Part shown: positions 1,256 through 19,314 of the stretch, in pieces
How positions within the stretch are numbered: the stretch's first letter is position 1
Layout: each line of letters begins with the position of its first letter
Assembly (NCBI GenBank): GCA_016177875.1
Contig: JACOUL010000008.1
Location: forward strand, 143,432 to 165,172
Direction of reading: 5' to 3'
Length of the DNA: 21,741 nt
Origin: Burkholderiales bacterium
GTDB lineage: Bacteria > Pseudomonadota > Gammaproteobacteria > Burkholderiales > Burkholderiaceae_D
Notes under the pieces: generated by a model
What the model saw: only the letters and a program-made list of their open reading frames with translations
The model's database searches: none
What the model was told of the DNA's origin: nothing
Position numbers and translations under genes: made by a program

Positions 1256-1256
1256 G

Positions 1257-1889
1257 GTGAAGAAGCAATATCAAACGCTGTCGGTTCTACTGCAGTACCC
1301 GGAGCCGCAATTGCTTGAAGCATTGCCGGAGCTTGGCGATGCGGTGTTGGCGATGCCGGAGCTTCATCCGCTGATGGTTTATTTTGGATCGAACGACTTG
1401 ATCAAGTTGCAAGAAAACTATGTGATGACGTTCGACCGCAATCCATCGCATTCGCTGCATCTGTTCGAGCATATTCACGGCGAATCGCGCGACCGCGGGC
1501 AAGCGATGGTCGACTTGATGGAAGAGTACAAGAAATACGGCATGGAAATGTGCAGCGAAGAGTTGCCCGATTACGTGCCGCTATTCCTGGAATTTCTCGC
1601 GCAAGTCGATCAGCGGGAAGCAAGCCGCATGCTGACCGACGCGGTCCATGTGCTGGCACACATAGGCCGCAAACTGGCCGCCAACGGCAGTCCGTATGCA
1701 GCAGTCTTCCAGGTGTTGGAGCGGATGAGCCCGGTGGCGGCGGAAGAATTGTCTGAACCGCCGGTGCGCGATATGGACGAAGCGCTCGAAACTTTCGGTC
1801 CGAGCGCGGACGGTGTCGAACCCTTGCTCAAGCCGACCAACAGCGGAGTGCAGCCGATTAATTTCTATCCGAAGCGCGCAGCGCAATAG
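1257..1889 (+). CDS. narJ: Nitrate reductase molybdenum-cofactor assembly chaperone NarJ. Probable GTG start at 1257, directly after the narH stop; the ORF-track ATG at 1206 would overlap narH by 50 nt.
   Basis: VKKQYQTLSVLLQYPE gives the same spacing to the LSxLLxYP motif as E. coli NarJ. LFEHIHGESRDRGQAMVDL is near-identical to the NarJ core motif. GGAGG/GGAAGGA Shine-Dalgarno at 1237-1250. Confidence 0.88.
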   Translation: MKKQYQTLSVLLQYPEPQLLEALPELGDAVLAMPELHPLMVYFGSNDLIKLQENYVMTFDRNPSHSLHLFEHIHGESRDRGQAMVDLMEEYKKYGMEMCSEELPDYVPLFLEFLAQVDQREASRMLTDAVHVLAHIGRKLAANGSPYAAVFQVLERMSPVAAEELSEPPVRDMDEALETFGPSADGVEPLLKPTNSGVQPINFYPKRAAQ

Positions 1890-1909
1890 GTGAGAGAGGA
1901 GAGTACAAA

Positions 1910-2593
1910 ATGGATTACCTGAATCAATTTTTCTTCGGCATTTATCCCTATATTGCGCTGGCTATCTTTTTGCTGGGCAGCCTGATTCGCTTCGACCGTG
2001 AGCAATACACATGGAAGTCCGAATCGACGCAGCTTTTGCATGCCGGCAGCCTGCGCCTCGGGAATATTCTGTTTCACGTCGGCGTGATCGGCTTGTTTTT
2101 CGGTCATGCGGTCGGTTTGCTGACGCCGGTGTGGGTGTGGGATACGCTGGGCATCTCGCACGGCGCCAAGCAAATTTTCGCCATGGTGGCCGGCGGCGTG
2201 ATGGGCACGCTTTGCCTGATCGGCATCCTGCTATTGCTGGCGCGCCGGTTTGCCAACGATCGCCTACGCGCCGTGACGACCTTCAAAGACAAGGTGGTGC
2301 TGCTGTGGATTCTGGCGACGCTGTCGCTCGGCCTTGCGTCGATCTTCGTGTCGGCCAGTCATACCGACGGCCATATGATGGTGCAGTTGATGAGCTGGGC
2401 ACAGCACGTCGTAACCTTCCGCGGCGATGCGGCGTCATTCATCGCCGATGCGCCGCTGATCTTCAAGCTGCACCTGTTCATGGGCATGTCGGTATTCGTG
2501 ATTTTCCCGTTCACCCGCCTGGTGCATGTGTGGAGCGGGTTTGCATCGGTAGGTTATCTGGCGCGCGCATATCAACTGGTGCGTCCGCGCTGA
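1910..2593 (+). CDS. narI: Respiratory nitrate reductase gamma subunit NarI (dihaem cytochrome b membrane anchor).
   Basis: MDYLNQFFFGIYPYIALAIFLLGSLIRFDREQYTWKS... is closely co-linear with E. coli NarI (FFFDIYPYIAG...RYDYGQYTW), including the haem-ligand histidines. GAGAGGAGAG Shine-Dalgarno upstream. Confidence 0.95.
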   Translation: MDYLNQFFFGIYPYIALAIFLLGSLIRFDREQYTWKSESTQLLHAGSLRLGNILFHVGVIGLFFGHAVGLLTPVWVWDTLGISHGAKQIFAMVAGGVMGTLCLIGILLLLARRFANDRLRAVTTFKDKVVLLWILATLSLGLASIFVSASHTDGHMMVQLMSWAQHVVTFRGDAASFIADAPLIFKLHLFMGMSVFVIFPFTRLVHVWSGFASVGYLARAYQLVRPR

Positions 2594-2613
2594 TTCAGTA
2601 CAAGGAGTAAATC

Positions 2614-3360
2614 ATGGGCATTTCCGTCAACGGCATCGAGCTAACCGATGCGGCAATCGGCCAAGAGCTGCCGCATCACCAAAAGGCGGACAATCCATTG
2701 AAGCAGACGGTGCATGAACTGGTCTTGCGCATGGTGCTGCTGCAGGAAGCCGACCGCCTCGGTCTCACCGGCGACACGGAGGACGACCGCATCGAAGCAT
2801 TGTTCGCGCATGAGCTGGATGTGCCCGAGGCCGATGAAGAAACCTGCGTGCGCTATTACCGCAACAACCCGGAGAAGTTTTCCAACGGCGAAATGATCGA
2901 GGTGCGGCACATCCTGCTGCAAGTCACGCCGAACGCACCGCTGGAATTGCTGCGCGAGACCGGCGAGGCGATGCTGGCTGAATTGAAGGAGCATCCCGAA
3001 CGCTTCGCCGAAATTGCCATGCAATATTCCAATTGCCCGTCCGGCGCGGTCGGCGGCAATCTCGGCCAGCTCACGCGCGGCCAGACCGTTCCCGAATTCG
3101 AGACATTCGTTTTTCGGCTAAATGAAAATCAGCTGGCCGATCGTTTGCTGGAAACGCGCTTCGGGCTGCACATCGTGCAAGTGCTGCGCAAGATCGAGGG
3201 GAAATTGCTGCCTTTCGAGACGGTGCGCGATGACATTCGGCAGTGGCTGCGTTTTCAAAGCTGGCAGCGTGCGATGCATCAATATCTGCAGATTCTGGTG
3301 GGGCAGGCGGATGTGCAGGGGGTTACGTTGGAAGGGGTGGGTAGTCCGTTGGTGCAATAG
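2614..3360 (+). CDS. PpiC/parvulin-type peptidyl-prolyl cis-trans isomerase encoded directly downstream of narI.
   Basis: Rotamase-domain motifs: EVRHILLQV, FAEIAMQYSNCPSGAVGGNLGQLTRGQTVPEFETFVF, RFGLHIVQV. AAGGAG Shine-Dalgarno 7 nt upstream. 20 nt after the narI stop. Confidence 0.85.
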   Translation: MGISVNGIELTDAAIGQELPHHQKADNPLKQTVHELVLRMVLLQEADRLGLTGDTEDDRIEALFAHELDVPEADEETCVRYYRNNPEKFSNGEMIEVRHILLQVTPNAPLELLRETGEAMLAELKEHPERFAEIAMQYSNCPSGAVGGNLGQLTRGQTVPEFETFVFRLNENQLADRLLETRFGLHIVQVLRKIEGKLLPFETVRDDIRQWLRFQSWQRAMHQYLQILVGQADVQGVTLEGVGSPLVQ

Positions 3361-3411
3361 GGAGTAGGACGACGAGAACTTAACTTTGCAATACGCCCAT
3401 CCGGTGGGACG

Positions 3412-3427
3412 CTGTTCCGGCATACAA
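3412..3427 (+). promoter_or_regulatory. Degenerate LexA (SOS) box CTGT-N8-ACAA, 26 nt upstream of the dinB start codon.
   Basis: CTGTtccggcatACAA is a 7/8 match to the outer positions of CTGT-N8-ACAG. The GC-rich spacer is atypical. Confidence 0.3.
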
Positions 3428-3452
3428 TGTCGGCTTCTCCTTCAGCCTCACC

Positions 3453-4604
3453 ATGAATCCCCGACCCAGGCGCGTTGCTCATCTCGACATGGATGCTTTT
3501 TATGCATCAGTCGAACTGCTGCGCTATCCGGAATTGCGCGGACAGCCGGTGGTCATCGGCGGACGCAATGACCACCAACCCGTGATGCAGGCTGACGGCA
3601 CTTATGCCTACTCGCGGCTGCGCGACTACGTAGGCCGCGGCGTGATTACCACCTCAACGTATGAAGCGCGCGCACTCGGCGTTTTTTCCGCAATGGGGAT
3701 GATGAAGGCGGCGAAGCTCGCGCCGGACGCCGTGCTGCTGCCCACCGATTTCGATGCCTATCGCCGCTATTCCCGCATGTTCAAAGCGGCTGTGACGGCC
3801 ATCGTGCCGGAGATGGAAGATCGCGGCATCGATGAAATTTATCTCGACCTTACCGATCACGACGACGATACGCGTGCGCTTGCCTTGCGCATCAAGCAAG
3901 CGGTGCGCGATGCCACGGGTCTTTCTTGCTCGATCGGCGTAGCACCCAACAAGCTCTTGGCAAAAATTTGTTCGGATCTTGAAAAGCCGGATGGCCTAAC
4001 GATCTTGGATCATGCCGATGTGGCGCATCGGATTTGGCCTTTGCCGGTTCGAAAAATCAATGGCATCGGACCCAAGGCCGCCGAGAAGCTTGCCAAGCTC
4101 GATATTCGCATCATCGAGGAGCTGGCGCACGCCGACCTCGGCCTTCTTCAAAAGCATTTTGGAAGAACTTACGCGGAGTGGCTGCATCGCGTCTCGCACG
4201 GCATCGACGATCGTCCGGTCGTTACCAGCTCGGAGCCGAAATCGATCAGCAGGGAAACTACCTTCGAACGCGATTTACATGCCAAGCATGATCGTGAAAT
4301 TCTTTCCGGCATTTTTACCCGCTTGTGCACGCGCTTGGCGGAGGATCTTCAGCGCAAGGGGTATGTCGGTCGCACCATAGGCATTAAGCTACGGTATGAA
4401 GATTTCAAGACGGTGACGCGGGATTTGTCTCTGCCTGCTGCTACTGCCGATGCAACGGCGATTCGGCGCGCGGCGGGGGAATGTCTGAAGCGCGTGCCCT
4501 TGCAAAAAAGGTTGAGATTGCTTGGTGTGAGAGTGAGTACATTGTCTAAGACTGCTGCGGCGTCCGGCGCCGTGGATGTGTTTCAAGGACAACTTGCCCT
4601 TTGA
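3453..4604 (+). CDS. dinB: DNA polymerase IV (Y-family translesion polymerase DinB).
   Basis: N-terminal HLDMDAFYASVE catalytic motif, ALGVFSAMGMMKAAKLAP, SIGVAPNKLLAKICSDLEKPDGLTIL, and the little-finger region. About 380 aa. Confidence 0.9.
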   Translation: MNPRPRRVAHLDMDAFYASVELLRYPELRGQPVVIGGRNDHQPVMQADGTYAYSRLRDYVGRGVITTSTYEARALGVFSAMGMMKAAKLAPDAVLLPTDFDAYRRYSRMFKAAVTAIVPEMEDRGIDEIYLDLTDHDDDTRALALRIKQAVRDATGLSCSIGVAPNKLLAKICSDLEKPDGLTILDHADVAHRIWPLPVRKINGIGPKAAEKLAKLDIRIIEELAHADLGLLQKHFGRTYAEWLHRVSHGIDDRPVVTSSEPKSISRETTFERDLHAKHDREILSGIFTRLCTRLAEDLQRKGYVGRTIGIKLRYEDFKTVTRDLSLPAATADATAIRRAAGECLKRVPLQKRLRLLGVRVSTLSKTAAASGAVDVFQGQLAL

Positions 4605-5626: not shown

Positions 5627-6595
5627 TTAATTACCTGACTTTGTATTCACCACAGCGACGCTAGCATGATCCAGGTCCGGCCGCCGCCATGGATCGACGT
5701 GCGTCATGAGATTCAACACCCGGTGCCGCTCCATCACGCGCTGCCTCGCGACGACGGAAATGTCATGCCCTTGCTCGACCGTCAGCGATGCATCGACTTC
5801 AATGTGCGCATCGACCACGATCATGTCGCCCATCTTGCGGGTGCGCAGATCGTGCACGTTATGCACGCCCGGCGTTTCCGTGAGCGTTTGCCGAATGGCT
5901 TCCACTTCTTTGTCGTCCGCCGAACGGTCGACCAGGTCGTGCAAGGCATCCCAGCCGAATCCCCAACCCATGCGCGCGATCATGAAACCGACGATCAGCG
6001 CGGCGATCGGGTCCAATAGCGGAAAGCCTGCCAGGTTACCGGCGATGCCGAGTCCCACCACCAGCGACGATGCCGCATCCGAGCGCGCATGCCAGGCATT
6101 TGCCACCAGCATGCCGGATTTGACGCGCTTGGCAACCGACAGCATGTAGCGAAACAATCCTTCTTTAATGACGAGCGTTGCGCCTGCCACCCAAAGCGCG
6201 GCGACATGAACGGTCGGAATGGCATCGGGTGCCTGCAGTTTCTGCAGCGCCGACCACAACATGCCGATGCCGACCGCCAACAGCAGCACGCCCAACACCA
6301 GCGATGCGGCATTCTCGAAACGCTGATGGCCGTACGGGTGATCCTGGTCGGCTTCCTTATGGCTATGCCGGCTGGCGAACAGCACCACGAAGTCGCCCAA
6401 GAGATCGGAAAGCGAATGAATGCCGTCCGCGATCAAGCCTTGCGATTTGGACAGCGTGCCCACCACAATTTGCACGACCGTCAGCAAGAGGTTGATGACG
6501 ATGCTCACCCAGCTCGTGCGCGATGCCGCGGCCTGGCGCTCGGCGACGCTGACTATCGTGTCTTCGGGATCGTCATTGAATTTTTCGAATTCCAT
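5627..6595 (-). CDS. Cation diffusion facilitator (CDF, FieF/CzcD-like) divalent-metal efflux transporter.
   Basis: The first transmembrane helix carries HSLSDLLGD. Also DHPYGHQRFE (the CDF signature HxxxD...H/D metal site), six transmembrane helices and a C-terminal cytoplasmic domain (VHDLRTRKMGDMIVVDAHIEV). Confidence 0.85.
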   Translation of the reverse strand: MEFEKFNDDPEDTIVSVAERQAAASRTSWVSIVINLLLTVVQIVVGTLSKSQGLIADGIHSLSDLLGDFVVLFASRHSHKEADQDHPYGHQRFENAASLVLGVLLLAVGIGMLWSALQKLQAPDAIPTVHVAALWVAGATLVIKEGLFRYMLSVAKRVKSGMLVANAWHARSDAASSLVVGLGIAGNLAGFPLLDPIAALIVGFMIARMGWGFGWDALHDLVDRSADDKEVEAIRQTLTETPGVHNVHDLRTRKMGDMIVVDAHIEVDASLTVEQGHDISVVARQRVMERHRVLNLMTHVDPWRRPDLDHASVAVVNTKSGN

Positions 6596-6679: not shown

Positions 6680-6696
6680 GTTAAGAAATCCTTAAG
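6680..6696 (+). promoter_or_regulatory. PmrA/QseB-box-like direct repeat GTTAAG-aaatc-CTTAAG (hexamers 11 bp apart), 34 nt upstream of the haem/two-component-system operon start codon.
   Basis: Read directly from the sequence. It matches the YTTAAK-N5-YTTAAK architecture reported for PmrA-type regulators (recalled from the literature). One-helical-turn periodicity is typical of OmpR-family sites. Confidence 0.4.
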
Positions 6697-6730
6697 GTGG
6701 CGGCGGCATCATGCAATCTAAGGAGGTGCC

Positions 6731-7144
6731 ATGAACCTGATATCTAAACCGCTATCGCTTGCCATCGTCATCGGCGCGGCGGCAATTTTCATCAATATGC
6801 GGGCCGCGTATGCGGCTGCGCCGGCCGAACTGCTTTCCGGCTACACGAGCCGGAGCGGCACGCTTGCTTCTTCGGCACGCGGCCGGGAGTTCTTTACATC
6901 GAAACACGGGCATGAATGGAGCTGCGCTTCATGTCACGGCGCGGTGCCGACGCAGTCCGGCGAGCATGCCGCTACCGGAAAGACGATTTTGCCGCTGGCG
7001 CCCGCCGTCAATGCCGAACGTTTTACCGACGCGGCAAAGAGCGAAAAATGGTTCCGCCGCAATTGCAATGACGTCGCGGGCCGGGAGTGCACCGCCGCCG
7101 AAAAGGCCGACATCTTGGCCTGGCTGCTGATGTTTAAACCTTGA
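6731..7144 (+). CDS. Periplasmic DUF1924-type mono-haem c-type protein; first gene of a haem/two-component-system operon.
   Basis: Strong AAGGAGG Shine-Dalgarno at 6720-6726. Signal peptide (…AAIFINMRAAYAAAP). Single CxxCH motif (CASCHG). Small size (137 aa). Confidence 0.7.
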   Translation: MNLISKPLSLAIVIGAAAIFINMRAAYAAAPAELLSGYTSRSGTLASSARGREFFTSKHGHEWSCASCHGAVPTQSGEHAATGKTILPLAPAVNAERFTDAAKSEKWFRRNCNDVAGRECTAAEKADILAWLLMFKP

Positions 7145-7160
7145 TTGCCGGAGACTTGCC

Positions 7161-7646
7161 ATGCCACTCAAATTGATTTTTTGCTTTAGCCGCTTGCTGG
7201 CCGCGCTGTTGATCGCTATCGGTATCGGCCATTCAGCCTTCGCCGACGACCATCGTGCAGCGCGCGTACCGTTTTTACCGAAATACCAACAGGAGTGCGC
7301 CGCCTGCCATCTCGCCTATCCGCCCGGCATGATGCCGTCGGCTTCCTGGCAACGAATCATGAACAACTTGCCGCGTCACTTCGGTACCGATGCTTCGCTG
7401 GATGCCGCTACGGTGAAGGAATTGTCGACCTGGCTCAATGTCAATGCCGGCACCTACAAGCGCGTTGCCGAAGCGCCGCCCGAAGACCGGATCACGCGAT
7501 CGGCATGGTTCATTCGCAAGCACGATGAAGTGCCTGCCGCGACCTGGAAGCTGGCTGCAGTGAAGAGCGCTTCGAACTGTGCCGCCTGCCATACCCGAGC
7601 CAACCAAGGAGATTTCAATGAACGCTTTATCCGACTCCCGCGCTGA
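7161..7646 (+). CDS. Periplasmic dihaem cytochrome c (DHC family).
   Basis: GGAGA Shine-Dalgarno 7 nt upstream. Signal peptide (…IGHSAFADD). Two CxxCH motifs (CAACHL, CAACHT) about 95 residues apart. Confidence 0.75.
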   Translation: MPLKLIFCFSRLLAALLIAIGIGHSAFADDHRAARVPFLPKYQQECAACHLAYPPGMMPSASWQRIMNNLPRHFGTDASLDAATVKELSTWLNVNAGTYKRVAEAPPEDRITRSAWFIRKHDEVPAATWKLAAVKSASNCAACHTRANQGDFNERFIRLPR

Positions 7647-8352
7647 TGCGCCGGAAAACAAAACAGAAACACGCAAGATCCTCGTGTGGGATGCGCCGGT
7701 TCGCGTTTTTCACTGGCTGATGGTGTTGAGCTTTGCCGGCGCATATCTCACTGCCGAGAGCGAGCGGTGGCGACTGGTGCATGTCACGCTCGGCTATACG
7801 ATGGCCGGCTTGGTGGTCTTTCGCATTCTCTGGGGTTTGACGGGAACGCGATACGCGCGCTTTGCGAATTTCGTGCGCGGCCCCAAAGCAGTAGCGGCTT
7901 ATCTCCGGACCTTGCTGCACGGGAAAGCTGAGCACCATGCCGGGCACAATCCGGCCGGCGCGTTGGCGATTGTCGCTTTGCTCGGCTTGACGATCGTGGT
8001 GGGAATGTCGGGCTGGGCGACTTTCAACGACATGGCAGGACATTGGTTGGAAGAGGTGCATGAGTCGGCAGCAAACATCATGCTGGCGGTCGTCGGCGTG
8101 CATGTCGCCGGCGTGGCGGTGTCGAGCTGGTTGCATCGTGAAAATTTGGTCCGCGCCATGTTCACCGGTAAAAAGTCCGGCGTCCCGAAGGATGGCATTC
8201 GCAGCACCTGGCGCAGTGTTGCTGCGGTAGTCTTGGTTTCCGTGCTCGGCTTCTGGGTGCTGCAGTGGCAAGGCGGGCCGTCAGGCGGCGTATTCTCCGA
8301 CCGGCCCGTTGCATCGGCCAAAGCTGATCGCCATCATCACGATGAGGACTGA
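7618..8352 (+). CDS. Membrane cytochrome b561 / Ni-Fe-hydrogenase-type b cytochrome (PF01292-like). Start placed at the internal ATG 7618, not the track ATG 7579.
   Basis: AGGAG Shine-Dalgarno at 7607-7611 precedes ATG 7618. Conserved VWDAPVRVFHW entry motif about 24 aa from that Met. Four transmembrane helices with His ligands (HWLMVL, HESAAN, HVAG). The start overlaps the 3' end of the dihaem gene by 29 nt. Confidence 0.78.
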   Translation: MNALSDSRADAPENKTETRKILVWDAPVRVFHWLMVLSFAGAYLTAESERWRLVHVTLGYTMAGLVVFRILWGLTGTRYARFANFVRGPKAVAAYLRTLLHGKAEHHAGHNPAGALAIVALLGLTIVVGMSGWATFNDMAGHWLEEVHESAANIMLAVVGVHVAGVAVSSWLHRENLVRAMFTGKKSGVPKDGIRSTWRSVAAVVLVSVLGFWVLQWQGGPSGGVFSDRPVASAKADRHHHDED

Positions 8353-8381
8353 TTGTTGCCGCTTCATGGGATAATTTCTTC

Positions 8382-9053
8382 ATGCGTATCCTGCTTGCCG
8401 AAGACGACACCTTGCTGGGCGATGGCTTAAAAGCCGGCTTGCGCCAGCTTGGGTTTCAAGTCGATTGGGTACGCGACGGCGAGGCGGCGGAGCACGAGTT
8501 GCGCGCACAGGAGTATGCCGCCGTGGTGCTCGATCTGGGTTTGCCGCGTAAGGATGGACTGGCGGTGTTAAAGACGCTGCGCGACGCGCGCAATGCGACG
8601 CCGGTACTGGTGCTGACGGCGCGCGATACCGTGCCGGACCGCATACGAGGACTTGATTTGGGTGCCGACGACTACGTCGTCAAGCCGGTGGATTTGCATG
8701 AGCTTGGCGCGCGCTTACGCGCACTGGTTCGCCGCGCGCACGGCCACGCCCACGAAGAGTTGGCCGCGCAGGATGTGGTGCTCGATCCGGCTGCCCGTTC
8801 GGTGCGCAAGGCCGGCAAGCCGGTGACGCTTTCCACGCGGGAGTTCGATCTGCTGCAGATCCTGATGCTCAACGCCGGGCGCGTGCTTTCTCGCGAACAG
8901 CTGGAACAGCATATCTACGGCTGGGGGCAGGAGGTCGAGAGCAATGCGATCGAAGTGCACGTCCATAATCTGCGGCGCAAGCTCGGCAATGCGCTCATCC
9001 AAACCGTGCGCGGCGTGGGATACATTCTTTTGCGCGACGCGCCGCAATCATGA
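8382..9053 (+). CDS. OmpR/PhoB-family response regulator (PmrA/QseB/TctD-like), cotranscribed with the haem-protein genes.
   Basis: Receiver motifs (LLAEDD, VVLDLGLP with the phospho-Asp, LVLTAR, GADDYVVKP) plus a winged-helix C-terminus (TLSTREFDLLQIL, VRGVGYIL). Only 29 nt after the cytochrome b stop. Confidence 0.9.
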   Translation: MRILLAEDDTLLGDGLKAGLRQLGFQVDWVRDGEAAEHELRAQEYAAVVLDLGLPRKDGLAVLKTLRDARNATPVLVLTARDTVPDRIRGLDLGADDYVVKPVDLHELGARLRALVRRAHGHAHEELAAQDVVLDPAARSVRKAGKPVTLSTREFDLLQILMLNAGRVLSREQLEQHIYGWGQEVESNAIEVHVHNLRRKLGNALIQTVRGVGYILLRDAPQS

Positions 9054-10396
9054 ATAAGCATTCCGGTTCATTGCAAGGACGCCTGCTTGCCTTGGTGCTT
9101 GGCGTGGTGACGATGGTTTGGCTGGCGGTTGCCGCGGCAATTTGGCTTGACGCCCGCCATGAACTCGACGAGCTGTTGGACGCTCATCTGGCCCAGGCGG
9201 CCGCGCTATTGGTGATGCAGTCCGGCCAATTCGAGCATGACGAACACGGCATCGATGCGCCATCATTGCATCGCTATGCGCCGAAAGTGGCGTTCCAAGT
9301 TTTTCATGAAGGGCGCCTGGCATTGCGTTCCGCGAATGCGCCTGCCGAACCCATGATTCGCCGGGGCACGGATTTTCATGCGGGATTCAAGACTGTGCAG
9401 ATCGAAGGCGCAGCGTGGCGCGTGTTCGCAGCGTACGGCGCGGAGCGCGATATCCAGGTGTATGTGGGTGAAAGAACGAGCTCGCGTTCTTCCATTCTGT
9501 GGGCCGTTTTGCGCAGTACATTGTGGCCGATGGCCGTCGCGTTGCCTTTGCTGGCGTTGGCCGTCTGGTGGGCGGTATTTCGCGGCGTGGCGCCGTTACG
9601 AAGGTTGGGCCGCACGCTCGCTGAACGGTTGCCGCAGGATCTGCAGCCGGTCGCAATGGACGATGCGCCATCCGAAATGAGGCCGATGATCGGCGCGCTC
9701 AACATCCTGTTCGGCCGAATCGGTACGCTGCTGGAATCCGAACGCCGCTTCACGGCCGACGCCGCGCATGAACTGCGCACGCCGATTGCCGCCATCCGCG
9801 CGCAGGCACAAGTGGCTTTGGGTGAAACCGATGATGCCGCGCGCCGCCATGCATTGCAATCCACGATAGAAGGGTGCGACCGTGCCACGCGTTTGGTGGA
9901 GCAGTTGTTGACACTCTCGCGCTTGGAAGCCGCCGAAGCGCCGCCGATGACGAGCGTCGATCTGCGCGCATTGGCGCAAGCTGTCGTGGCGGAGATTGTA
10001 CCCAAGGCGATCGCAAAAAATCAGACACTGGAATTTGCCGGGAATGAGGCGTGCCGTATGGCAGGGGATGAAACGCTGTTGATGGTTCTGGTGCGGAATT
10101 TGGTCGACAATGCCGTGCGCTACAGCCCGTCGAGCGCGCGGGTGAGCGTGAATGTTCGACGGGAAAATAATCGGGTCCATTTAAGTGTTGAAGACAGCGG
10201 CCCGGGTATGGCGGAAGCTGATCGTGTAAAGTTGGGCGAAAGATTCTTCAGGGTAACAGGCAGCGGCGAGACCGGCAGCGGCCTGGGTTGGTCTATCGTG
10301 CGCCGCATCGCTTTGGTGCATAAAATGGACCTACAAGTTGAAAAATCGGCAAAGCTGGGCGGCTTGGCGGTGCATATGCAAGTGCACTCCATCTAG
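9050..10396 (+). CDS. QseC/PmrB-like membrane sensor histidine kinase.
   Basis: ATGA start/stop overlap with the response regulator. Two transmembrane segments flank an approximately 120-aa periplasmic domain. H-box (FTADAAHELRTPIAAIRAQAQ), N-box (LVDNAVRY) and G-boxes (EDSGPGM, GSGLGWSIV). Confidence 0.9.
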   Translation: MNKHSGSLQGRLLALVLGVVTMVWLAVAAAIWLDARHELDELLDAHLAQAAALLVMQSGQFEHDEHGIDAPSLHRYAPKVAFQVFHEGRLALRSANAPAEPMIRRGTDFHAGFKTVQIEGAAWRVFAAYGAERDIQVYVGERTSSRSSILWAVLRSTLWPMAVALPLLALAVWWAVFRGVAPLRRLGRTLAERLPQDLQPVAMDDAPSEMRPMIGALNILFGRIGTLLESERRFTADAAHELRTPIAAIRAQAQVALGETDDAARRHALQSTIEGCDRATRLVEQLLTLSRLEAAEAPPMTSVDLRALAQAVVAEIVPKAIAKNQTLEFAGNEACRMAGDETLLMVLVRNLVDNAVRYSPSSARVSVNVRRENNRVHLSVEDSGPGMAEADRVKLGERFFRVTGSGETGSGLGWSIVRRIALVHKMDLQVEKSAKLGGLAVHMQVHSI

Positions 10397-10507
10397 CCGG
10401 ATTGGCAAACTCCTCCAAAAGAACTACCCGTTTTAGGCATTCATGCGAACTGCCTCCGGCGCAGCGGTTCTATACAATGAACTTGACCTTACTGCCTGGA
10501 GTTACGC

Positions 10508-11482
10508 ATGCTCACCGACCGTTTTGGTCGATCGATCCAATATCTGCGGCTGTCCGTGACGGACCGTTGCGACTTGCGTTGCACGTATTGCATGCCGAAA
10601 GGATTCAAGGGCTTCGAGGAACCGGAACATTGGCTGACCTTCGATGAAATTGAGCGCCTGCTGGCCGCTTTTGCGCGCCTGGGTACGTCGCGTATCCGTT
10701 TGACCGGCGGCGAGCCGCTCTTGCGCCGCAATCTGCCGGAGCTTGCCGCGCGTATTTCCGCCTTGCCCGGCATCCGCGATTTGTCCTTGTCGACCAATGC
10801 CACGCGTCTGAACCGTTACGCATATGAATTGCGCGAAGCCGGTGTCGCGCGCATCAACGTCAGCCTCGATTCGCTCGACCGCGCCTGCGTGGAAAACATC
10901 ACCGGCCATGACAGCCTGACCAAAATCATGGATGGCTTGATGGCAGGGAAGACGGCCGGCTTTTCGCCCATCAAGGTCAACATGGTGGTCATGCGCGGCA
11001 CCAATGATCACGAAATCGATGACATGGTGGCGTTTTGTATCGAGCATGGATTTATTTTGCGTCTGATCGAAGCAATGCCGATGGGGGCCACCGGCCGCAA
11101 CACCGAGTATGTCGATCTTGGTCCGGTACAGGCGCGCCTCAAGGAGAAGTTCGATTTGCATCCGCAAGCGGCCGAACTCGGCGGCGGCCCGGCGCGTTAT
11201 TTGGCCACGGCGGACGGCAGCGCCAGCATCGGATTTATCACGGCGATGTCGCAGCATTTTTGCGCGACCTGTAATCGCGTGCGCCTCGCGGTCGACGGCA
11301 CGCTATATTTGTGCCTTGGGCAGGAAGAGAAGTTCGAATTCCGTCCGCTGTTACGCGGCGGCGCAAGCGATATCGAGCTCGAAGACGCGATCCGTGCCGC
11401 CATCGAATTAAAGCCGCAAAAACATGAATTCCGCGAGCAGCCGCAAAAGATCGTGCGCTTTATGTCGCAGACAGGAGGATGA
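10508..11482 (+). CDS. moaA: GTP 3',8-cyclase MoaA (radical-SAM enzyme, first step of molybdopterin biosynthesis).
   Basis: LRLSVTDRCDLRCTYCMP radical-SAM cysteine triad. GGEPLLR. C-terminal second Fe-S cluster cysteines (CATCNRVRL...GTLYLCLG). 324 aa. Confidence 0.9.
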   Translation: MLTDRFGRSIQYLRLSVTDRCDLRCTYCMPKGFKGFEEPEHWLTFDEIERLLAAFARLGTSRIRLTGGEPLLRRNLPELAARISALPGIRDLSLSTNATRLNRYAYELREAGVARINVSLDSLDRACVENITGHDSLTKIMDGLMAGKTAGFSPIKVNMVVMRGTNDHEIDDMVAFCIEHGFILRLIEAMPMGATGRNTEYVDLGPVQARLKEKFDLHPQAAELGGGPARYLATADGSASIGFITAMSQHFCATCNRVRLAVDGTLYLCLGQEEKFEFRPLLRGGASDIELEDAIRAAIELKPQKHEFREQPQKIVRFMSQTGG

Positions 11483-11484
11483 CC

Positions 11485-12147
11485 ATGGAAGCTATCGAAA
11501 AATTCGTTCGCGGTTTTCGGCGCTTCCAGCAGCAATATTTAAGCGAACCTGCCACCTTCGATAGCCTGCGCCAGGGACAGAATCCGGGTACGTTGGTAAT
11601 CGGATGCTGTGATTCACGCGTCGATCCGGTGCTGCTTACCGGCAGCGACCCGGGCGACATGTTCGTCGTGCGCAACATCGCCAACCTGGTGCCGCCTTGT
11701 ACGCCGGATGCGCCGCCCGGCGTGACCTCCGCCATTGAATTTGCAATTTGCGGCTTACAAGTTGCCCGCGTGATTGTTCTCGGCCATGCGCGCTGCGGCG
11801 GCATACGGGCGCTCATGAATCCCCGGCGTCTGGCGGAAGAAACCGATTTCGTCGGCCGCTGGATGCGTATTGCCGAACCCGTGCGGCTAAGCGTCATGCA
11901 GGAATTGCGCGACAAGACGGAAGAGCAGCAGCATAAGGCGTGCGAATTGGCGAGCATCCTGCAGTCGCTCGATAACTTGCTGACCTATCCCTGGATTAAG
12001 CGGCGGGTCGAAGAGGGGACGCTTGTTTTGCATGGATGGTATTTCGACATTGAATCGGGCGCATTGCTGGCATACTCACCCCGCCAGCAAGAATTTCTTC
12101 CCATGGTTTGCCCGCTTGAAGATGAGGCATTCGCCACGGCGGAGTAA
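11485..12147 (+). CDS. Beta-class carbonic anhydrase. Start placed at ATG 11485; the track ATG at 11479 overlaps the moaA stop.
   Basis: Beta-carbonic-anhydrase zinc-ligand motifs (CCDSRVDP and GHARCGG) plus a dimerisation region. AGGAGGA Shine-Dalgarno at 11472-11478, 6 nt before ATG 11485. Confidence 0.85.
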   Translation: MEAIEKFVRGFRRFQQQYLSEPATFDSLRQGQNPGTLVIGCCDSRVDPVLLTGSDPGDMFVVRNIANLVPPCTPDAPPGVTSAIEFAICGLQVARVIVLGHARCGGIRALMNPRRLAEETDFVGRWMRIAEPVRLSVMQELRDKTEEQQHKACELASILQSLDNLLTYPWIKRRVEEGTLVLHGWYFDIESGALLAYSPRQQEFLPMVCPLEDEAFATAE

Positions 12148-12201
12148 AAATTTCGTTGCTGCCATACTCGCCATACCGACATGTCAACTTGAGCGCCGCC
12201 G

Positions 12202-14163
12202 GTGCTCTTATTCAGAAATCTCATGACGCTTAATTCACATTTTCCGGCTCGGCACAAACTATCGACCAAAATCGCCGGCGCGCTGGTGAGCTTCTTGCTG
12301 TTGGCCTTAATCGTCATCGGCGTGACGCTTTTATTGTCTTGGCAGCTGGAAGGCAGTTCGGCGGCGATTAATGAGACGGGTAGCTTGCGCATGCATAGCT
12401 ATCGTTTGACGCTCTTGGTTACCCGCGCAGTCGATAAGCCGGGGCAGCCTAGTTTACGGGCGGCGGCTGAGCAAGAAATGCAGGCGATCGACTCGACTTT
12501 TAATTTGTTGGCGCACAGCGATCCGCAGCGGCCGCTTGCATTGCCGCCCACCGACAGCATTCGCACGACATTTGCCAGCTTATCGAAGCGTTGGCGGTAC
12601 GGAATGCGCCCGCTCGCAGTGGCGTCGCTCGGTGCCGGTACGGAAAGCGCCGCCGCATGGCAGAAGTATCAGGCTGAAGTGGAACGCTTTGTTTTCGATA
12701 TCGACCGCTTGGTGCATGCAATCGAACGCGACAGCGAATGGCGTACCTTTTGGCTGCGTTCGTCGCAACTGGCGTTGGTGGCAATGGCGCTTACCGGCAC
12801 CGTTGCGCTCATCTATTTGATGTTCATGCTGATCGTTGAGCCCGTCACGCGCTTGAGTGAGGGGATGAAGAGTATGGCAGATCAAGATTTGAGCGTGCGT
12901 CTGCCGGTGGAAAGCAAGGATGAATTCGGGCAATTGACGATAGGCTTTAATCAAATGGCCGACCGCTTGCAAGCGCTTTACGACAGTTTGGAAGACCGGG
13001 TGCGCAAAAAAACCGCCGCGCTGGCCGATCAAAATTGCGAGCTTGCGCTCTTGTACGACAGCGCCTCCTTTTTGCAACTGCCGCAATCGCTGGAATCGAT
13101 GTGTGACGGATTTCTTCAGCGCATCCGCACTTATTTCGGTGCCGACGGCAGCTCGGTGCGCGTGCTGGACCCGCGCAACAGCAATTTGCATATGGTGGTC
13201 CATCACGGCATTTCACAGGAACTCGTCGAAACGGAACGTTGCTTGAAAGTGGGCGATTGTCTGTGCGGCGATGCCGTTGCCAAAAAAATTACGGTGATTC
13301 ATGATTTGCGCAAAATGGATGAAGCCCATCATTTGCAGTGTCACCGTGAAGGTTTTGCCACCGTTTCCGTGTTTCATATACACGTGCACAACCAGCATTT
13401 GGGCTTTTTTAATTTGCACTTCCGGACGGCCAAGACATTTAGCGAGCATGAACAAGCCTTGCTCGAAACGCTGGGTCAGTTGCTCGGCATCGCCATTGAA
13501 AATCTGCGTTTGGCGACGCGTGAACGCGAGATGGCGATTTCGGAAGAGCGCAATCTGGTCGCCCAGGGTTTGCACGACAGCATTGCCCAAGGTCTGACTT
13601 TCCTGAATATTCAAGTGCAAATGCTGGAAGATTCTTTGCGTTACGGGCGCGTGGACGAAGCGACCGCCATCGTTCCGGTGTTGCGCGCCGGCGTGCAGGA
13701 GAGTTATGAGGATGTCCGCGAATTATTGCTGAACTTCCGCAGCCGCTTATCCGAGGACGATTTAATCGGCGCGATAAAAGGCACGCTCGACAAGTTCAAA
13801 CGTCAAACCGGCATCGAGGCGGAGTTGATCGCCAAAGGCAATGGCGCGCCCTTCCCGCGCGAGCAACAATTGCAGGTTTTGTTCATTGTGCAGGAAGCGC
13901 TGTCGAATATCCGCAAGCATGCGTTGGCAAGCAAGGTAGAAGTGAAGCTGGACGATAGCCAAGATTTCACGCTGTCGATTTCCGACAATGGTGTCGGCTT
14001 TGATCCTGCGGGGCTGGCGCAGCGCGGCGATAATCATGTTGGTTTGAATATTATGCAAGAGCGTGCGCATCGCATCCATGCGATACTTGACGTTAATTCG
14101 GCGCCGGGCAAGGGCACGACGGTGTTGCTGCGCCTGCTGAGGGAACATCGGCGCGCCGCATAA
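12202..14163 (+). CDS. narX: Nitrate/nitrite sensor histidine kinase NarX. The start is uncertain: GTG 12202 or ATG 12223, neither with a good Shine-Dalgarno.
   Basis: P-box GSLRMHSYRL in the periplasmic domain between two transmembrane helices. HAMP domain. Cysteine-containing central module (CLCGD). HisKA_3 H-box (ERNLVAQGLHDSIAQGL). HATPase (DNGVGFD, GLNIMQERA...GKGTTV). Confidence 0.85.
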   Translation: MLLFRNLMTLNSHFPARHKLSTKIAGALVSFLLLALIVIGVTLLLSWQLEGSSAAINETGSLRMHSYRLTLLVTRAVDKPGQPSLRAAAEQEMQAIDSTFNLLAHSDPQRPLALPPTDSIRTTFASLSKRWRYGMRPLAVASLGAGTESAAAWQKYQAEVERFVFDIDRLVHAIERDSEWRTFWLRSSQLALVAMALTGTVALIYLMFMLIVEPVTRLSEGMKSMADQDLSVRLPVESKDEFGQLTIGFNQMADRLQALYDSLEDRVRKKTAALADQNCELALLYDSASFLQLPQSLESMCDGFLQRIRTYFGADGSSVRVLDPRNSNLHMVVHHGISQELVETERCLKVGDCLCGDAVAKKITVIHDLRKMDEAHHLQCHREGFATVSVFHIHVHNQHLGFFNLHFRTAKTFSEHEQALLETLGQLLGIAIENLRLATREREMAISEERNLVAQGLHDSIAQGLTFLNIQVQMLEDSLRYGRVDEATAIVPVLRAGVQESYEDVRELLLNFRSRLSEDDLIGAIKGTLDKFKRQTGIEAELIAKGNGAPFPREQQLQVLFIVQEALSNIRKHALASKVEVKLDDSQDFTLSISDNGVGFDPAGLAQRGDNHVGLNIMQERAHRIHAILDVNSAPGKGTTVLLRLLREHRRAA

Positions 14164-14186
14164 TAAATGGAACATGAACTTCTTAT

Positions 14187-14870
14187 ATGGACGCATCCAG
14201 ACCGATTAGCGTACTTTTAATTGACGACCACACCCTATTTCGTAGCGGTATCAAGTCCTTATTGCAACGCTATGAAGATTTCACCGTGGTCGGCGAAGCT
14301 TCCGACGGTGTCGAAGGTATTAAACGTGCCCGTCAATTGCAGCCGGATGTGGTGCTGCTCGATTTAAATATGCCTGGTATTTCAGGTCTGGAGACACTGC
14401 AGCTTTTACTGCAGGATTGTCCCGATGCCGCCGTGATCATGCTGACTGTTTCTGAAGAAGCGGAAGATTTGACCACTGCCCTGCAGTCAGGCGCGCGCGG
14501 TTATTTGATTAAGAATATCGATGCCGATTATCTGGTGCGCGCCATCCGCCGTGCCGCTGCCGGCGATTCGGTTCTGGCCGAAGCGATGGCCGGCAAATTG
14601 GTTGCCCATTTGCAGGGCGGCGGTTCGCAAAAGACCGCCGTTCCTTCGGACTTGGATAAGTTGACCCCGCGCGAACGCGAAATCTTGGCATGCCTTGCGC
14701 GCGGCGAAAGCAACAAGATCATCGCGCGAACTCTGGATGTTGCGGAAAGCACCGTAAAAATCCATGTCCAAAATATCTTAAAGAAATTACATCTCACCAG
14801 TCGGGTCCAAGCCGCCGTTTTTGCGGTGGAACATGGCATGGCCGGCACACAAGTTAGCAACGACCGTTAA
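14187..14870 (+). CDS. narL: NarL/FixJ-family nitrate response regulator with a LuxR-type helix-turn-helix.
   Basis: Receiver (LLIDDH, VVLLDLNMPG, IMLTV), LuxR helix-turn-helix (LTPREREILACLARGESNKIIARTLDVAESTVKIHVQNILKKL). 23 nt downstream of narX. Confidence 0.85.
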   Translation: MDASRPISVLLIDDHTLFRSGIKSLLQRYEDFTVVGEASDGVEGIKRARQLQPDVVLLDLNMPGISGLETLQLLLQDCPDAAVIMLTVSEEAEDLTTALQSGARGYLIKNIDADYLVRAIRRAAAGDSVLAEAMAGKLVAHLQGGGSQKTAVPSDLDKLTPREREILACLARGESNKIIARTLDVAESTVKIHVQNILKKLHLTSRVQAAVFAVEHGMAGTQVSNDR

Positions 14871-15022
14871 AATTTTGACAATCGTTCGGGGCCGGCAGTC
14901 CGTTTGCCTGTGCTCTTTGCTGTATTTGTGCAGCGCTCCTGTCCGAATAGCGGTTGTCGCGCTACACTAACCAAAAAATAAAAAGCACATAACGCGAACC
15001 AGCATGGGGGAGAGCCTGCATA

Positions 15023-16231
15023 GTGCTGAAAAAAATCCAAGTAAAACAATTGAAGGTGGGAATGTTCCTGCATGAATTGTGTGGCGCCGGCTGGCTGCAC
15101 AATCCGTTCTGGCGTTCTGCTTTTTTAATTCAAACCCCCAAAGAAATTCAGCAGATTCTTGATTGCGGCGTCCAAGAACTTTGGATCGACACATCAAAAG
15201 GCGTGGACGTCGATAGCCCGGCGGCGCCACCGCCGCAAGCCGCCGCGCCTGCGCCGGCACCAACGCCTCAACCCGCCAAGCCCGAACGCGTGAGCGTCGA
15301 AGCTGAAATGGCGCGCGCCGCCAAAATTTGCGCTGCCGCTAAGCGCGAAGTCACCTTGATGTTCAACGAAGCGCGGCTAGGGCGCGCGCTGAATGTCAGC
15401 AATGCCATGCCTTTGGTGGAAGAAATTTCGCAGTCGGTTTTGCGCAATCCCGATGCTCTAATTGGACTGGCGCGGTTAAAGACCAAGGACGATTACACCT
15501 ATATGCATTCCGTTGCGGTGTGCGCCTTGATGGTGGCGTTGGCGCGCCAGCTCGGGCTCGAAGAGTTGCAGGTGCGCGAAGCGGGTTTTGCCGGTCTTTT
15601 GCACGACATCGGCAAGATGATGATCCCCAATGAAATTCTCAATAAACCCGGTGCGCTGTCGCGCGAGGAATTTCTCGTTATCCAGACCCATCCGGTTGAA
15701 GGCCACAAGCTTTTGCTGGAAGGGCAGGGCGCGACGGATGCGGCGCTGGACGTGGTTTTGCATCATCATGAAAAAGTGGACGGCACCGGCTATCCGGATA
15801 AACTGGCCGGTGACAAGATTACGCTTCTCGCCAGAATGGGCGCAGTATGCGACGTGTACGACGCATTGACGTCGAATCGCGTCTACAAAAACGGCTGGTG
15901 CCCGGCCGAAGCGATACGCAGGATGGCGGAATGGGCGGGGCACTTCGATGACAAGGTGTTCCAGGCGTTCGTCAAGAGCACCGGCATTTATCCGGTCGGC
16001 ACCTTGGTCATGCTTGAGTCGGGGCGCTTAGGCGTGGTGATCGAACAATCCGAAAAATCGCTTTTGACGCCGCGCGTCAAAGTGTTTTTCTCGACCAAAT
16101 CCAAGACCTACATCACGCCGGAAATTATCAATATGGCCGGCCCCGGTAAAGTCGACAAGATCGTTGGCCGCGAAGACGCCGCCAAGTGGGGGTTAAAAAA
16201 CGTTAACGAATTTTGGACCGGCGGCCGTTGA
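15023..16231 (+). CDS. HD-GYP-domain c-di-GMP phosphodiesterase with an N-terminal DUF3391-like domain and a Pro/Ala-rich linker. GTG start.
   Basis: HDIGKMMIP...HHHEKVDGTGYPDKL (HD...HHxE/K..GxGYP signature). N-terminal VKQLKVGMFLHELCGAGWLHNPFW is DUF3391-like. Low-complexity PAAPPPQAAAPAPAPTPQPAKPE linker. GGGGAGAG Shine-Dalgarno about 9 nt upstream of GTG 15023. Confidence 0.8.
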   Translation: MLKKIQVKQLKVGMFLHELCGAGWLHNPFWRSAFLIQTPKEIQQILDCGVQELWIDTSKGVDVDSPAAPPPQAAAPAPAPTPQPAKPERVSVEAEMARAAKICAAAKREVTLMFNEARLGRALNVSNAMPLVEEISQSVLRNPDALIGLARLKTKDDYTYMHSVAVCALMVALARQLGLEELQVREAGFAGLLHDIGKMMIPNEILNKPGALSREEFLVIQTHPVEGHKLLLEGQGATDAALDVVLHHHEKVDGTGYPDKLAGDKITLLARMGAVCDVYDALTSNRVYKNGWCPAEAIRRMAEWAGHFDDKVFQAFVKSTGIYPVGTLVMLESGRLGVVIEQSEKSLLTPRVKVFFSTKSKTYITPEIINMAGPGKVDKIVGREDAAKWGLKNVNEFWTGGR

Positions 16232-16262
16232 TCGTTAAATTTTTCCCGTCGCCCGGAAAAAA

Positions 16263-16276
16263 TTGATTCATATCAT
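16263..16276 (+). promoter_or_regulatory. FNR/DNR/NNR-type box TTGAT-tcat-ATCAT (9/10 to TTGAT-N4-ATCAA) upstream of nnrS, with a TACCAT -10 candidate at 16299-16304 (class-II spacing).
   Basis: Read directly from the sequence. The box centre lies about 41.5 nt upstream of the predicted transcription start if the -10 element is TACCAT. nnrS genes are typically NNR/DNR/NsrR-controlled. Confidence 0.5.
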
Positions 16277-16334
16277 GTGAGTTTGGCGTTCCATTTTTTA
16301 CCATGGGAGCATCCAAATCTCTCTTAAGCTTCCC

Positions 16335-19184: not shown

Positions 19185-19314
19185 TGCCTAAAACGTTAGG
19201 CTTTAAACATTCATGCAAGTTCATCATCGCGGCGTCGTGTTTTGAATGAAGGAATTTTGTCCATGTAGAAAAAATGTGCAAAAATCAGTCACCGTTTATC
19301 TCAGGTGAATGACA

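Follow-up and report, generated by a model that had tools for sequence, protein, structure and literature searches.

Introduction

Five co-oriented open reading frames occupy positions 6731–10396, on the plus strand, of a 21,741-nucleotide stretch of DNA from a Burkholderiales bacterium (assembly GCA_016177875.1, contig JACOUL010000008.1); the whole of this stretch is referred to here as the window. In order, they encode a homologue of the mono-haem cytochrome SHP, a soluble dihaem cytochrome c (DHC), a membrane dihaem cytochrome b (CytB), a response regulator (RR) and a sensor histidine kinase (HK). SHP was discovered in 1985 (bioRxiv 10.64898/2026.01.22.701106). It is found in more than 40 proteobacteria, in operons of three to six genes, where it is accompanied by a membrane dihaem cytochrome b and a soluble DHC (Meyer, Kyndt and Cusanovich 2010; PMC2909971). 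According to the same source, SHP binds O2, NO and organic amines, is reduced by DHC, converts NO to nitrate in vitro, and is described as the sole c-type haem protein known to bind O2 stably. Most SHP operons include a sensor kinase and a response regulator, which are of three kinds; in the SK2 kind, which is found for example in several Burkholderia species, the kinase is a QseC homologue (PMC2909971). CzcD-type transporters adjoin the operon in several species (PMC2909971). A preprint that reviews the same facts stresses that the physiological role of SHP is unknown (bioRxiv 10.64898/2026.01.22.701106), and literature searches for DUF1924 by name returned incidental mentions only.

An initial reading of the window, made from its letters without database searches (the sequence-only reading), had described the haem-protein trio as uncharacterised. 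This holds for the physiological substrate and for the signal of the kinase, but not for the proteins themselves: structures of SHP (1DW0) and DHC (2FW5, 3U99), NO dioxygenase activity and electron transfer have all been published. The tie between the trio and a two-component system had likewise been presented as new, whereas it is already described, with the QseC-like SK2 kinase, in PMC2909971.

The closest described systems are the SK2-type SHP operons of Burkholderia species and Leptothrix cholodnii (PMC2909971), which have the same five gene families, a kinase homologous to QseC and hosts from the same bacterial order as the window. The published biochemistry (binding of O2 and NO, transfer of electrons from DHC to SHP, and NO dioxygenase activity in vitro) comes from the Rhodobacter sphaeroides system (PDB 1DW0–1DW3, 2FW5, 2FWT), which shares with the window the SHP haem ligands, tryptophan and disulfide, a homologous DHC and a b-type membrane cytochrome. 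The two differ in gene order, which is CytB/mDHC, SHP, sDHC in Rhodobacter and SHP-DHC-CytB in the window; in the cytochrome b, which is fused to a membrane DHC (mDHC) in Rhodobacter and unfused in the window; and in regulation, as the Rhodobacter operon has no regulatory genes and is partly under the control of PrrBA, encoded elsewhere on the chromosome, whereas the window operon has a built-in two-component system. Cytochrome c'' of Methylophilus methylotrophus (PDB 1E8E, 1GU2, 1OAE) belongs to the same fold family as the window SHP, loses its sixth haem ligand on reduction and has a disulfide; however, that ligand is a histidine, whereas the window protein has the SHP-type asparagine, and cytochrome c'' neither binds O2 nor has a DHC partner (PMC2909971).

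Trios of a dihaem c-type, an SHP-like mono-haem c-type and a b-type cytochrome, as in the window, are also found in Sideroxydans (ircABCD) and Allochromatium vinosum (Alvin_0019-0025), in clusters inducible by Fe(II), Fe(0) or pyrite. The ircABCD trio is among the most strongly Fe(II)-induced genes in Sideroxydans (PMC12442390), and the Allochromatium trio is induced on pyrite together with a ferrous-iron-efflux cation diffusion facilitator (CDF) and a response regulator (PMC11267869). These clusters differ from the window in gene order, in an extra hypothetical protein (IrcC or Orf1) and, in Allochromatium, in having an SK1 kinase, and their hosts are iron or sulfur lithotrophs or phototrophs.

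The regulatory pair has its nearest described relatives in PmrAB (BasRS) of Escherichia coli, Salmonella and Klebsiella and in QseBC of E. coli and Aggregatibacter (FirRS in Haemophilus). These have a related regulator and a PmrA-box operator, and the window kinase shares the QseC architecture; the ygiW-qseBC operon is autoregulated, and members of the group sense iron or zinc. The known targets of these systems are lipopolysaccharide-modification genes or ygiW, whereas the predicted targets of the window regulator are cytochromes, and the EYRED/DYRED motif of the QseBC group is absent from the window kinase.

Five genes with the content of an SK2-type SHP operon

By the families and the clustering of its genes, the window operon belongs to the SK2 type of SHP operon described by Meyer et al. 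2010 among others. It is ordinary in kind, being another such operon from an uncultured Burkholderiales bacterium, and its value is as a well-defined handle on the old, open question of the role of SHP rather than as a discovery. A Pfam search returned exactly the families that the sequence-only reading had anticipated, namely PF09086, PF09626 and PF01292 for the haem proteins, followed by an OmpR-family regulator and a kinase.

The first gene (6731–7144) encodes a 137-residue SHP homologue with a single haem-binding motif; this c-type cytochrome is predicted to be secreted, to carry one haem and to bind small ligands. It matched PF09086 (DUF1924) with 130.7 bits against a cut-off of 22.5 (E = 2.6e-38), and R. 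sphaeroides SHP (PDB 1DW0) over residues 30–132 (E = 3.5e-29); the second-best solved relative was cytochrome c'' (1E8E; E = 2.3e-20), and NCBIfam holds no model for SHP. The CxxCH motif (C65ASC68H69) was invariant in 20 homologues, as were W107, N111, C112 and C120, which align to Trp84, Asn88 and Cys89–Cys97 of the R. sphaeroides protein. On this alignment N111 is the predicted dissociable sixth haem ligand, W107 the distal tryptophan and C112/C120 the disulfide pair. The N-terminus has a hydrophobic segment (residues 3–26) followed by AYA/AAP, and the mature 1DW0 chain aligns from residue 30; the protein is thus predicted to be periplasmic, by way of a cleavable signal peptide (signal and transmembrane segments were assigned from hydropathy throughout). 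No other sequence found exceeds 76% identity to the window SHP, whose source is a metagenome-assembled genome (MAG) of an uncultured member of the Burkholderiales.

The second gene (7161–7646) encodes a soluble DHC (sDHC) of 161 residues with two CAACH motifs, which by analogy with its homologues would be the electron donor to SHP. It matched PF09626 (131.3 bits, E = 4.5e-38), PDB 2FW5 (E = 1.6e-24) and the Shewanella structure 3U99, and its N-terminus is signal-like. Both CxxCH motifs and the distal histidines H73 and H121 were conserved in 100% of 77 orthologues. The third gene (7618–8352) encodes CytB, a 244-residue membrane dihaem cytochrome b of the b561/hydrogenase-cytb class, presumed to be the quinol-interacting subunit. 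The match to PF01292 was 97.4 bits (E = 1.1e-27), and H32, H55, H148 and H162 were conserved at 99%, as expected for a dihaem cytochrome of the b561/HyaC type. This bears out the b561 core in the earlier description of CytB as a four-helix protein; an extra C-terminal hydrophobic segment (197–215) lies beyond that core, however, so CytB is probably not a plain four-helix protein. A longer reading frame beginning at a GTG codon at 7579 was rejected in favour of the ATG at 7618, which has a Shine-Dalgarno sequence, an independent 244-residue gene call and the conserved 29-nt overlap with the DHC gene on its side. The fourth and fifth genes encode an OmpR-family response regulator of the QseB/PmrA subgroup (8382–9053; 223 residues) and a sensor histidine kinase of QseC architecture with a periplasmic 2CSK_N domain, corresponding to the SK2 of Meyer et al. 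(9050–10396; 448 residues).

Inspection of the sequence itself bore out the coordinates and junctions given in the sequence-only reading: a 16-nt gap between the SHP and DHC genes (7145–7160), a 29-nt overlap of the DHC and CytB genes (7618–7646), a 29-nt gap between the CytB and regulator genes (8353–8381) and an ATGA overlap of the regulator and kinase genes (9050–9053). Shine-Dalgarno sequences precede the SHP gene (AAGGAGG, 6720–6726, with an 'aagga' consensus at the same place in related loci), the DHC gene (GGAG before 7161) and the CytB gene (AAGGAG, 7607–7612). Independent gene calls on a public contig of the same organism gave identical products of 137, 161, 244, 223 and 448 residues. 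The earlier reading had named a promoter and terminator between CytB and the regulator as a finding that would speak against it; the scan of the 29-nt gap showed no terminator-like structure and no promoter there, nor is there room for one; the 71-nt stretch at this junction folded no better than shuffled sequences (z = +0.38). No terminator was found in the scan 3' of the kinase gene either, where the fold had z = -1.34. The five genes are packed so tightly that, on this layout, they must be co-transcribed: the small gaps and overlaps, the lack of a terminator at the CytB/regulator junction and the recurrence of the same geometry across loci all argue for a single transcription unit.

The conservation of the arrangement was examined in SHP relatives from a scan of one genome per species, which yielded at least 590; the best 80, nearly all from Burkholderiales and including Paraburkholderia, Ralstonia and Polaromonas hosts, were taken as comparison loci with 7 kb of flanking sequence on either side. 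Linkage was counted over the 72 loci with at least 3.8 kb of sequence downstream of SHP, using a tblastn map with the window proteins as queries. SHP, DHC, CytB, RR and HK were contiguous and in this order in 62 of the 72, and two more had the same order with a 1.8-kb insert. The five-gene arrangement is, on these counts, far beyond chance, since its order recurs in 62–64 of 72 related loci, and the link to the two-component system that the earlier reading had set as a test of itself holds. Median junctions in the 56 loci that could be parsed cleanly were +33.5, -29, +24.5 and -4 nt, so that the ATGA overlap, like the one of 29 nt between DHC and CytB, is characteristic of the family; the tblastn map adds L005, L032, L033, L041, L046 and L066 to the complete operons. 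Cultured hosts of the same operon include Paraburkholderia phenoliruptrix LMG 22037, Ralstonia thomasii, Burkholderia diffusa and Polaromonas.

A conserved PmrA-type box and a predicted activator-dependent promoter

Fifty nucleotides upstream of the SHP start codon is a direct repeat of two hexamer half-sites, GTTAAG and CTTAAG, separated by the 5-bp spacer aaatc (6680–6696, plus strand); it is the predicted binding site of the co-encoded regulator and is unique in the window (0.00 matches expected). Its two half-sites, direct orientation and 5-bp spacer fit the PmrA box as defined experimentally, in which CTTAAG or CTTAAT is followed by 5 bp and then by xTTAAT or CCTAAG as a direct repeat (PMC3973317). 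The QseB operator of A. actinomycetemcomitans also matches the PmrA consensus, and the operon that it controls is autoregulated (PMC4660874).

The box was sought in 79 of the comparison loci, within 110 nt upstream of the SHP start, with a background rate drawn from the remainder of the 2 Mb of loci. A strict pattern matched just 12 of the 79, after which the relaxed pattern TAAG-N7-TAA[GT] was adopted; when the upstream regions were read directly, the second half-site proved to be mostly CCTAAG or GGTAAG. The relaxed pattern was present in 72 of the 79 loci, compared with 0.001 expected, and the 18 'background' matches were mostly the same boxes on the other strand or boxes missed by start-codon parsing. 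Over the 72 loci the consensus was gTTAAGAaa.CccTAAG, followed after 10 nt by a hexamer nAnnAT in which, at this fixed spacing, the second-position A was found in 72/72, the fifth-position A in 67/72 and the final T in 72/72.

The window equivalent of this hexamer, CATCAT (6707–6712, plus strand), lies 10 nt downstream of the box and is the predicted -10 element. The SHP start codon follows 19 nt after it, so the leader would be very short, with transcription probably starting at about 6719. No -35 hexamer was found upstream of SHP, and a scan with the sigma-70 consensus gave no full promoter; given the missing -35 element, the promoter is predicted to be activator-dependent. For activators of the OmpR/PhoB family, a box placed 10 bp from the -10 region is the classic layout. 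From the predicted binding of the regulator at this site, we infer that it activates the whole operon, including its own genes.

The presence of the box tracks that of the two-component pair, as it was found in 62 of 64 loci with the pair and in three of eight without it (Fisher p = 7.8e-5). A metagenome scan, with the exact commonest box and the three invariant -10 bases as the query, gave 101 matches; SHP was directly downstream in 73, four were too short to judge and 24 were non-SHP. Among the 28 long metagenome stretches with a box match, 23 carried all five genes in order and the other five had a 4-kb insert. The conserved promoter is new here, as far as the literature search showed; the sections of PMC2909971 consulted make no mention of the box, the -10 element or the HExxE motif described below. 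The box and promoter, sharply defined and near-universal, could be used as a reporter fusion to screen for the inducing signal.

Some further occurrences of the box were recorded. The E. coli K-12 ygiW-qseB intergenic region (L081, 3727–3743) contains CTTAACAACTTCTTAAG about 90 nt upstream of qseB, with the same spacing as the SHP box, and serves as an informal positive control. In Aquabacterium (L005 and L024), the CDF-SHP intergenic region holds two back-to-back boxes that share a central palindromic CTTAAG half-site (CTTAGCCATGGCTTAAGAAAGCCCTAAG) and face SHP and CDF, which suggests that the same regulator may drive both genes at these two loci. Three loci, L001 (Noviherbaspirillum sp. ST 5-3), L006 and L076, have no adjacent two-component system and keep the box before SHP; presumably the regulator is encoded elsewhere. 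A box (TTAAGGAAGCCCTAAG) in L050 (6504–6519) precedes an extra, secreted-looking 127-residue open reading frame upstream of SHP rather than SHP itself, and the nearest two-component system there is a different one, about 3 kb away, with a regulator 43% and a kinase 29% identical. About 20 of the 24 non-SHP metagenome matches are one human-gut ABC-ATPase sequence, repeated across samples and unrelated to SHP. They come from L099, L124, L137, L159 and some 16 further metagenome loci, several of them labelled human gut, where 80 nt separate the 17-mer CTTAAGAAAACCCTAAG (exact, and with an unchanged -10 skeleton) from an ABC-transporter ATPase downstream of it (MNMEEILKVTDLKKVYG...). Coincidence may account for this, or else an OmpR-family operator of some gut bacterium. 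A second match in the window, to TAAG-N7-TAAG at 18981–18995 on the plus strand (TAAGCGGTGGTTAAG), was set aside as probably due to chance, with 0.23 matches expected in the window; it lies within the 5' end of a minus-strand FAD/Rieske oxidoreductase gene, 314 nt upstream of a second OmpR-type two-component system (19309–21275).

The two-component system

The regulator is composed of Response_reg and Trans_reg_C domains and shares 54% identity with QseB of E. coli and 48% with BasR/PmrA; its best PDB match is PmrA of K. pneumoniae (4S04, E = 6.4e-51). The residues with which PmrA contacts bases, K153, T187, N188, H193 and H195, correspond to R, S, N, H and H in the window regulator, three of the five being identical and two conservatively replaced, and the recognition-helix residues H193 and H195 were conserved in 100% of 68 orthologues.

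The kinase is composed of 2CSK_N, HisKA and HATPase_c domains, with transmembrane segments at about 13–31 and 152–176 on either side of a periplasmic domain of about 120 residues. It is 34% identical to E. coli QseC over residues 7–439, periplasmic domain included, whereas the alignment with BasS is confined to the cytoplasmic part, from residue 156 on, the periplasmic domain of BasS being about 30 residues long. Neither the NCBIfam equivalogs for QseB and QseC (NF007663/NF007664; 256.7 bits against 345 for QseB and 300.6 against 475 for QseC) nor those for PmrA and PmrB (NF007928/NF008025; 248.5 bits against 330 and 194.7 against 314) were reached. Both proteins are well below the equivalog cut-offs, and the pair is therefore QseBC-like, not QseBC. 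The earlier view of a haem chain between periplasm and quinone that is tied to a PmrA/QseBC-type two-component system is supported.

At the boundary between the first transmembrane segment and the periplasm, the kinase has an HExxE sequence (H37-E38-L-D-E41), of which E38 is found in 62 and E41 in 54 of 64 orthologues; E. coli BasS has HESTE at the matching place. A metal-binding role of ExxE is known for PmrB and ColS (PMC4074579). The window kinase has a second ExxE (E62HDE65), which few orthologues share, and a variable acidic patch at 60–66. Relatives of the kinase, namely PmrB, FirS, Aggregatibacter QseC and ColS, sense iron or zinc (PMC4660874, PMC4074579). A metal, probably iron, is the favoured signal on the circumstantial grounds of these iron- and zinc-sensing relatives, the conserved HExxE, the recurrence of an iron-type CDF beside the operon and the induction of homologous trios by iron. 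The HExxE motif offers a target for mutation.

Proposed pathway and alternative explanations

The best explanation of these observations, and a fairly probable one, is that the locus encodes a metal-responsive chain, activated by its own regulator, in which electrons pass from quinol to CytB, DHC and SHP, and which acts on O2 or NO. What the periplasmic domain of the kinase would sense is a cation, with iron or another transition metal the likeliest. The phosphorylated regulator would then bind the direct repeat at 6680–6696, in place of a -35 element, and switch on the whole operon by positive autoregulation. CytB would draw electrons from quinol, as has been proposed for its homologues, and DHC would reduce SHP, as published for homologues. 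Reduced SHP would shed its asparagine ligand and bind O2 or NO, again by analogy with published homologues, and oxy-SHP could turn NO into nitrate, as homologues do in vitro. On this view the module would supply the periplasm with a haem enzyme, induced by metal stress and fed by quinol, for the removal or conversion of a small diatomic molecule (O2, NO), and it may often be deployed with a FieF/MamB-like CDF exporter.

A number of points weigh against this explanation. The (D/E)YR(E/D)D periplasmic motif implicated in iron and catecholamine sensing (PMC4660874) is absent from the kinase; the EYRED of E. coli QseC, which like that of FirS is iron-associated, aligns to SSRSS, and only R146 is invariant among the orthologues in this segment. 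The second ExxE is found in a minority of orthologues only, and an ELDEL-like helix is also present in QseC (VDELF), so that the conserved kinase sequence may be structural rather than metal-binding. The cognate two-component pair is not adjacent to the trio in eight of the 72 loci. The iron-responsive homologous trios are under different regulators (SK1 in Allochromatium) or have no known one. Literature searches found no experimental work on any SK2-type SHP operon: one directed at Burkholderia, Ralstonia and Cupriavidus gave nothing relevant, and a Herbaspirillum paper matched through its reference list only. The haem potentials of DHC, reportedly from work by Gibson et al. in 2006, are said to be very low, at about -240 and -310 mV; if so, its reduction by quinol would be uphill, and the source of electrons is uncertain. 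Haem proteins that bind O2 commonly show NO dioxygenase activity in vitro (PMC2909971).

A narrower version of the metal-responsive explanation is tentative, and on present evidence is doubted more than it is believed. Here a periplasmic iron sensor, a kinase with a PmrB-like HExxE, would have the SK2 SHP operon as its dedicated output; it would act through a PmrA-type box that replaces the -35 element, in a self-amplifying circuit, and a quinol-fed, O2/NO-binding cytochrome c together with a FieF/MamB-like iron exporter would protect the periplasm from Fe(II)-driven oxidative and nitrosative chemistry. If this were true, SHP would gain its long-missing physiological role, and a new iron-stress regulon would be recognised in Burkholderiales.

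Alternatively, the electrons could flow the other way. The trio would then oxidise a periplasmic donor, either Fe(II) or, through an added flavoprotein, sulfide, and pass electrons from SHP and DHC through CytB to quinone, as an input chain that conserves energy or detoxifies. In iron oxidisers, the homologous clusters respond to Fe(II) (ircABCD, PMC12442390), and they have been proposed to link MtoA to quinone (bioRxiv 10.64898/2026.01.22.701106); the Allochromatium cluster is induced on pyrite; an iron-type CDF is a recurrent neighbour; and two comparison loci (L012 and L034) have an FCSD-like flavoprotein between CytB and the regulator. However, the hallmarks of a ligand-binding, catalytic haem in SHP (dissociable asparagine, disulfide and distal tryptophan) are all conserved, the direction demonstrated in vitro is from DHC to SHP (PMC2909971), and the Ferrigenium preprint itself terms the quinone-reducing idea highly speculative. 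Reversed flow is accordingly considered unlikely. Most hosts of the clade, such as Paraburkholderia, Ralstonia and Polaromonas, are not known as iron oxidisers, which also counts against it.

For QseC-linked operons, Meyer et al. suggested that SHP oxygenates an organic amine or a signalling molecule; the kinase would sense this molecule and the operon would modify or inactivate it. That SHP binds both organic amines and O2 and that the kinase is QseC-like (PMC2909971) is in keeping with such a role, as are five metagenome variants in which a small-molecule-type cassette lies between CytB and the regulator behind the same box. The kinase is, however, well below the QseC equivalog threshold, with a periplasmic domain poorly conserved with that of QseC; there is no report of oxygenase activity towards an organic substrate; and neither the window nor any of the 80 genome loci has the biosynthetic cassette. 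An oxygenase role of this sort is therefore judged very unlikely.

The direction of signalling might also be inverted, with the haem trio as an input. In this arrangement SHP would be a periplasmic haem co-sensor that reports O2, NO or redox state to the kinase, much as accessory periplasmic proteins do for other kinases. The trio and the kinase are very tightly co-inherited, SHP binds diatomic gases reversibly, and SK1-type operons carry an accessory periplasmic protein, Orf1, that is thought to be part of the sensor (PMC2909971). Nevertheless, a regulator-type box before SHP makes the trio a regulated output, SHP operons with no linked kinase exist (in R. sphaeroides and in 8/72 loci), and a sensor would have no need of a dedicated two-protein electron supply. 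A co-sensor role is, on this evidence, highly unlikely, although the co-sensor and output roles of SHP are not mutually exclusive.

That the five genes are mere neighbours, independently transcribed and functionally unconnected, deserves almost no credence: the promoter and transcript are predictions, but order and spacing are conserved across Burkholderiales families and metagenomes, coding regions overlap at two junctions, the junctions hold no terminator-like element, and the presence of the box correlates with that of the two-component system.

Neighbouring genes and lineage-specific variants

Divergent from the operon and outside its transcript is a gene for a FieF/MamB-like CDF (5627–6595, minus strand) with the Pfam domains Cation_efflux and ZT_dimer. 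Its best NCBIfam sub-models were MamB, MamM and FieF, which are of the iron type, all below their cut-offs. CDF orthologues of 59–78% identity adjoin the SHP operon in 22 of the 80 loci, in 16 of these divergently upstream as in the window, and CzcD-type CDF genes beside SHP operons are noted in PMC2909971. The sequence-only reading had taken both the CDF gene and the nitrate-respiration and molybdenum-cofactor genes around the operon as possible hints to the signal. The first suggestion gains from this recurrence, and the CDF is possibly a co-regulated partner; the second does not, as none of the 80 related loci has a homologue of MoaA, carbonic anhydrase or NarX beside it. The recurrent iron-type CDF partner points to metals rather than to nitrate.

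Upstream in the window are narH (cut by the window edge), narJ, narI and genes for a PPIase and a DinB-type polymerase (98–4604), and downstream (10508–17534) are moaA, a beta-carbonic anhydrase gene, narX, narL and genes for a DUF3391/HD-GYP protein and NnrS. The block formed by SHP, CDF and a Na-Ca exchanger lies inside this neighbourhood of nitrogen-oxide genes. The narHJI/moaA/narXL/NnrS context would fit an NO-related role in this organism, though it is not conserved: around the operon in the 80 related loci, no member of this neighbourhood recurs. The start of the beta-carbonic anhydrase gene overlaps the moaA stop by 4 nt (11479–11482), and such a coupling of moaA with carbonic anhydrase is unusual; the Ferrigenium preprint flags carbonic anhydrase under denitrifying conditions (bioRxiv 10.64898/2026.01.22.701106).

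Some lineages have additional genes in the operon. The FCSD-like flavoprotein (PF21706, PF09242) of L012 (about 8700–10460) and L034 (8931–10337), both Burkholderiales MAGs, is encoded between CytB and the regulator. It resembles the flavoprotein chain of flavocytochrome c sulfide dehydrogenase (FCSD), a hint that in certain lineages electrons from sulfide may feed into the chain. In the metagenome locus L125 (1978–6125), and likewise in L116, L156, L161 and L164, five extra genes lie between CytB and the regulator, with an identical box and promoter. They encode a T_hemolysin-family protein (PF12261), an AMP-binding enzyme, a haem-oxygenase-like iron enzyme (PF14518), an SDR and a TPR protein, and together they resemble a cassette for the biosynthesis of a small molecule, under common regulation with SHP.

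Seven loci (L014, L029, L044, L045, L058, L070 and L076) have a small open reading frame of about 53 residues between CDF and SHP, divergent from SHP, which the window lacks. Its product has the pattern MHPxLRxFxRxYLG...LGGHPGE and one hydrophobic segment, with no Pfam match, and the reading frame is preceded by a degenerate box-like sequence, CTTAAGGgcGTCTGAGG. In the Noviherbaspirillum locus L001, a gene for a heavy-metal P-type ATPase with an HMBD lies about 3 kb downstream.

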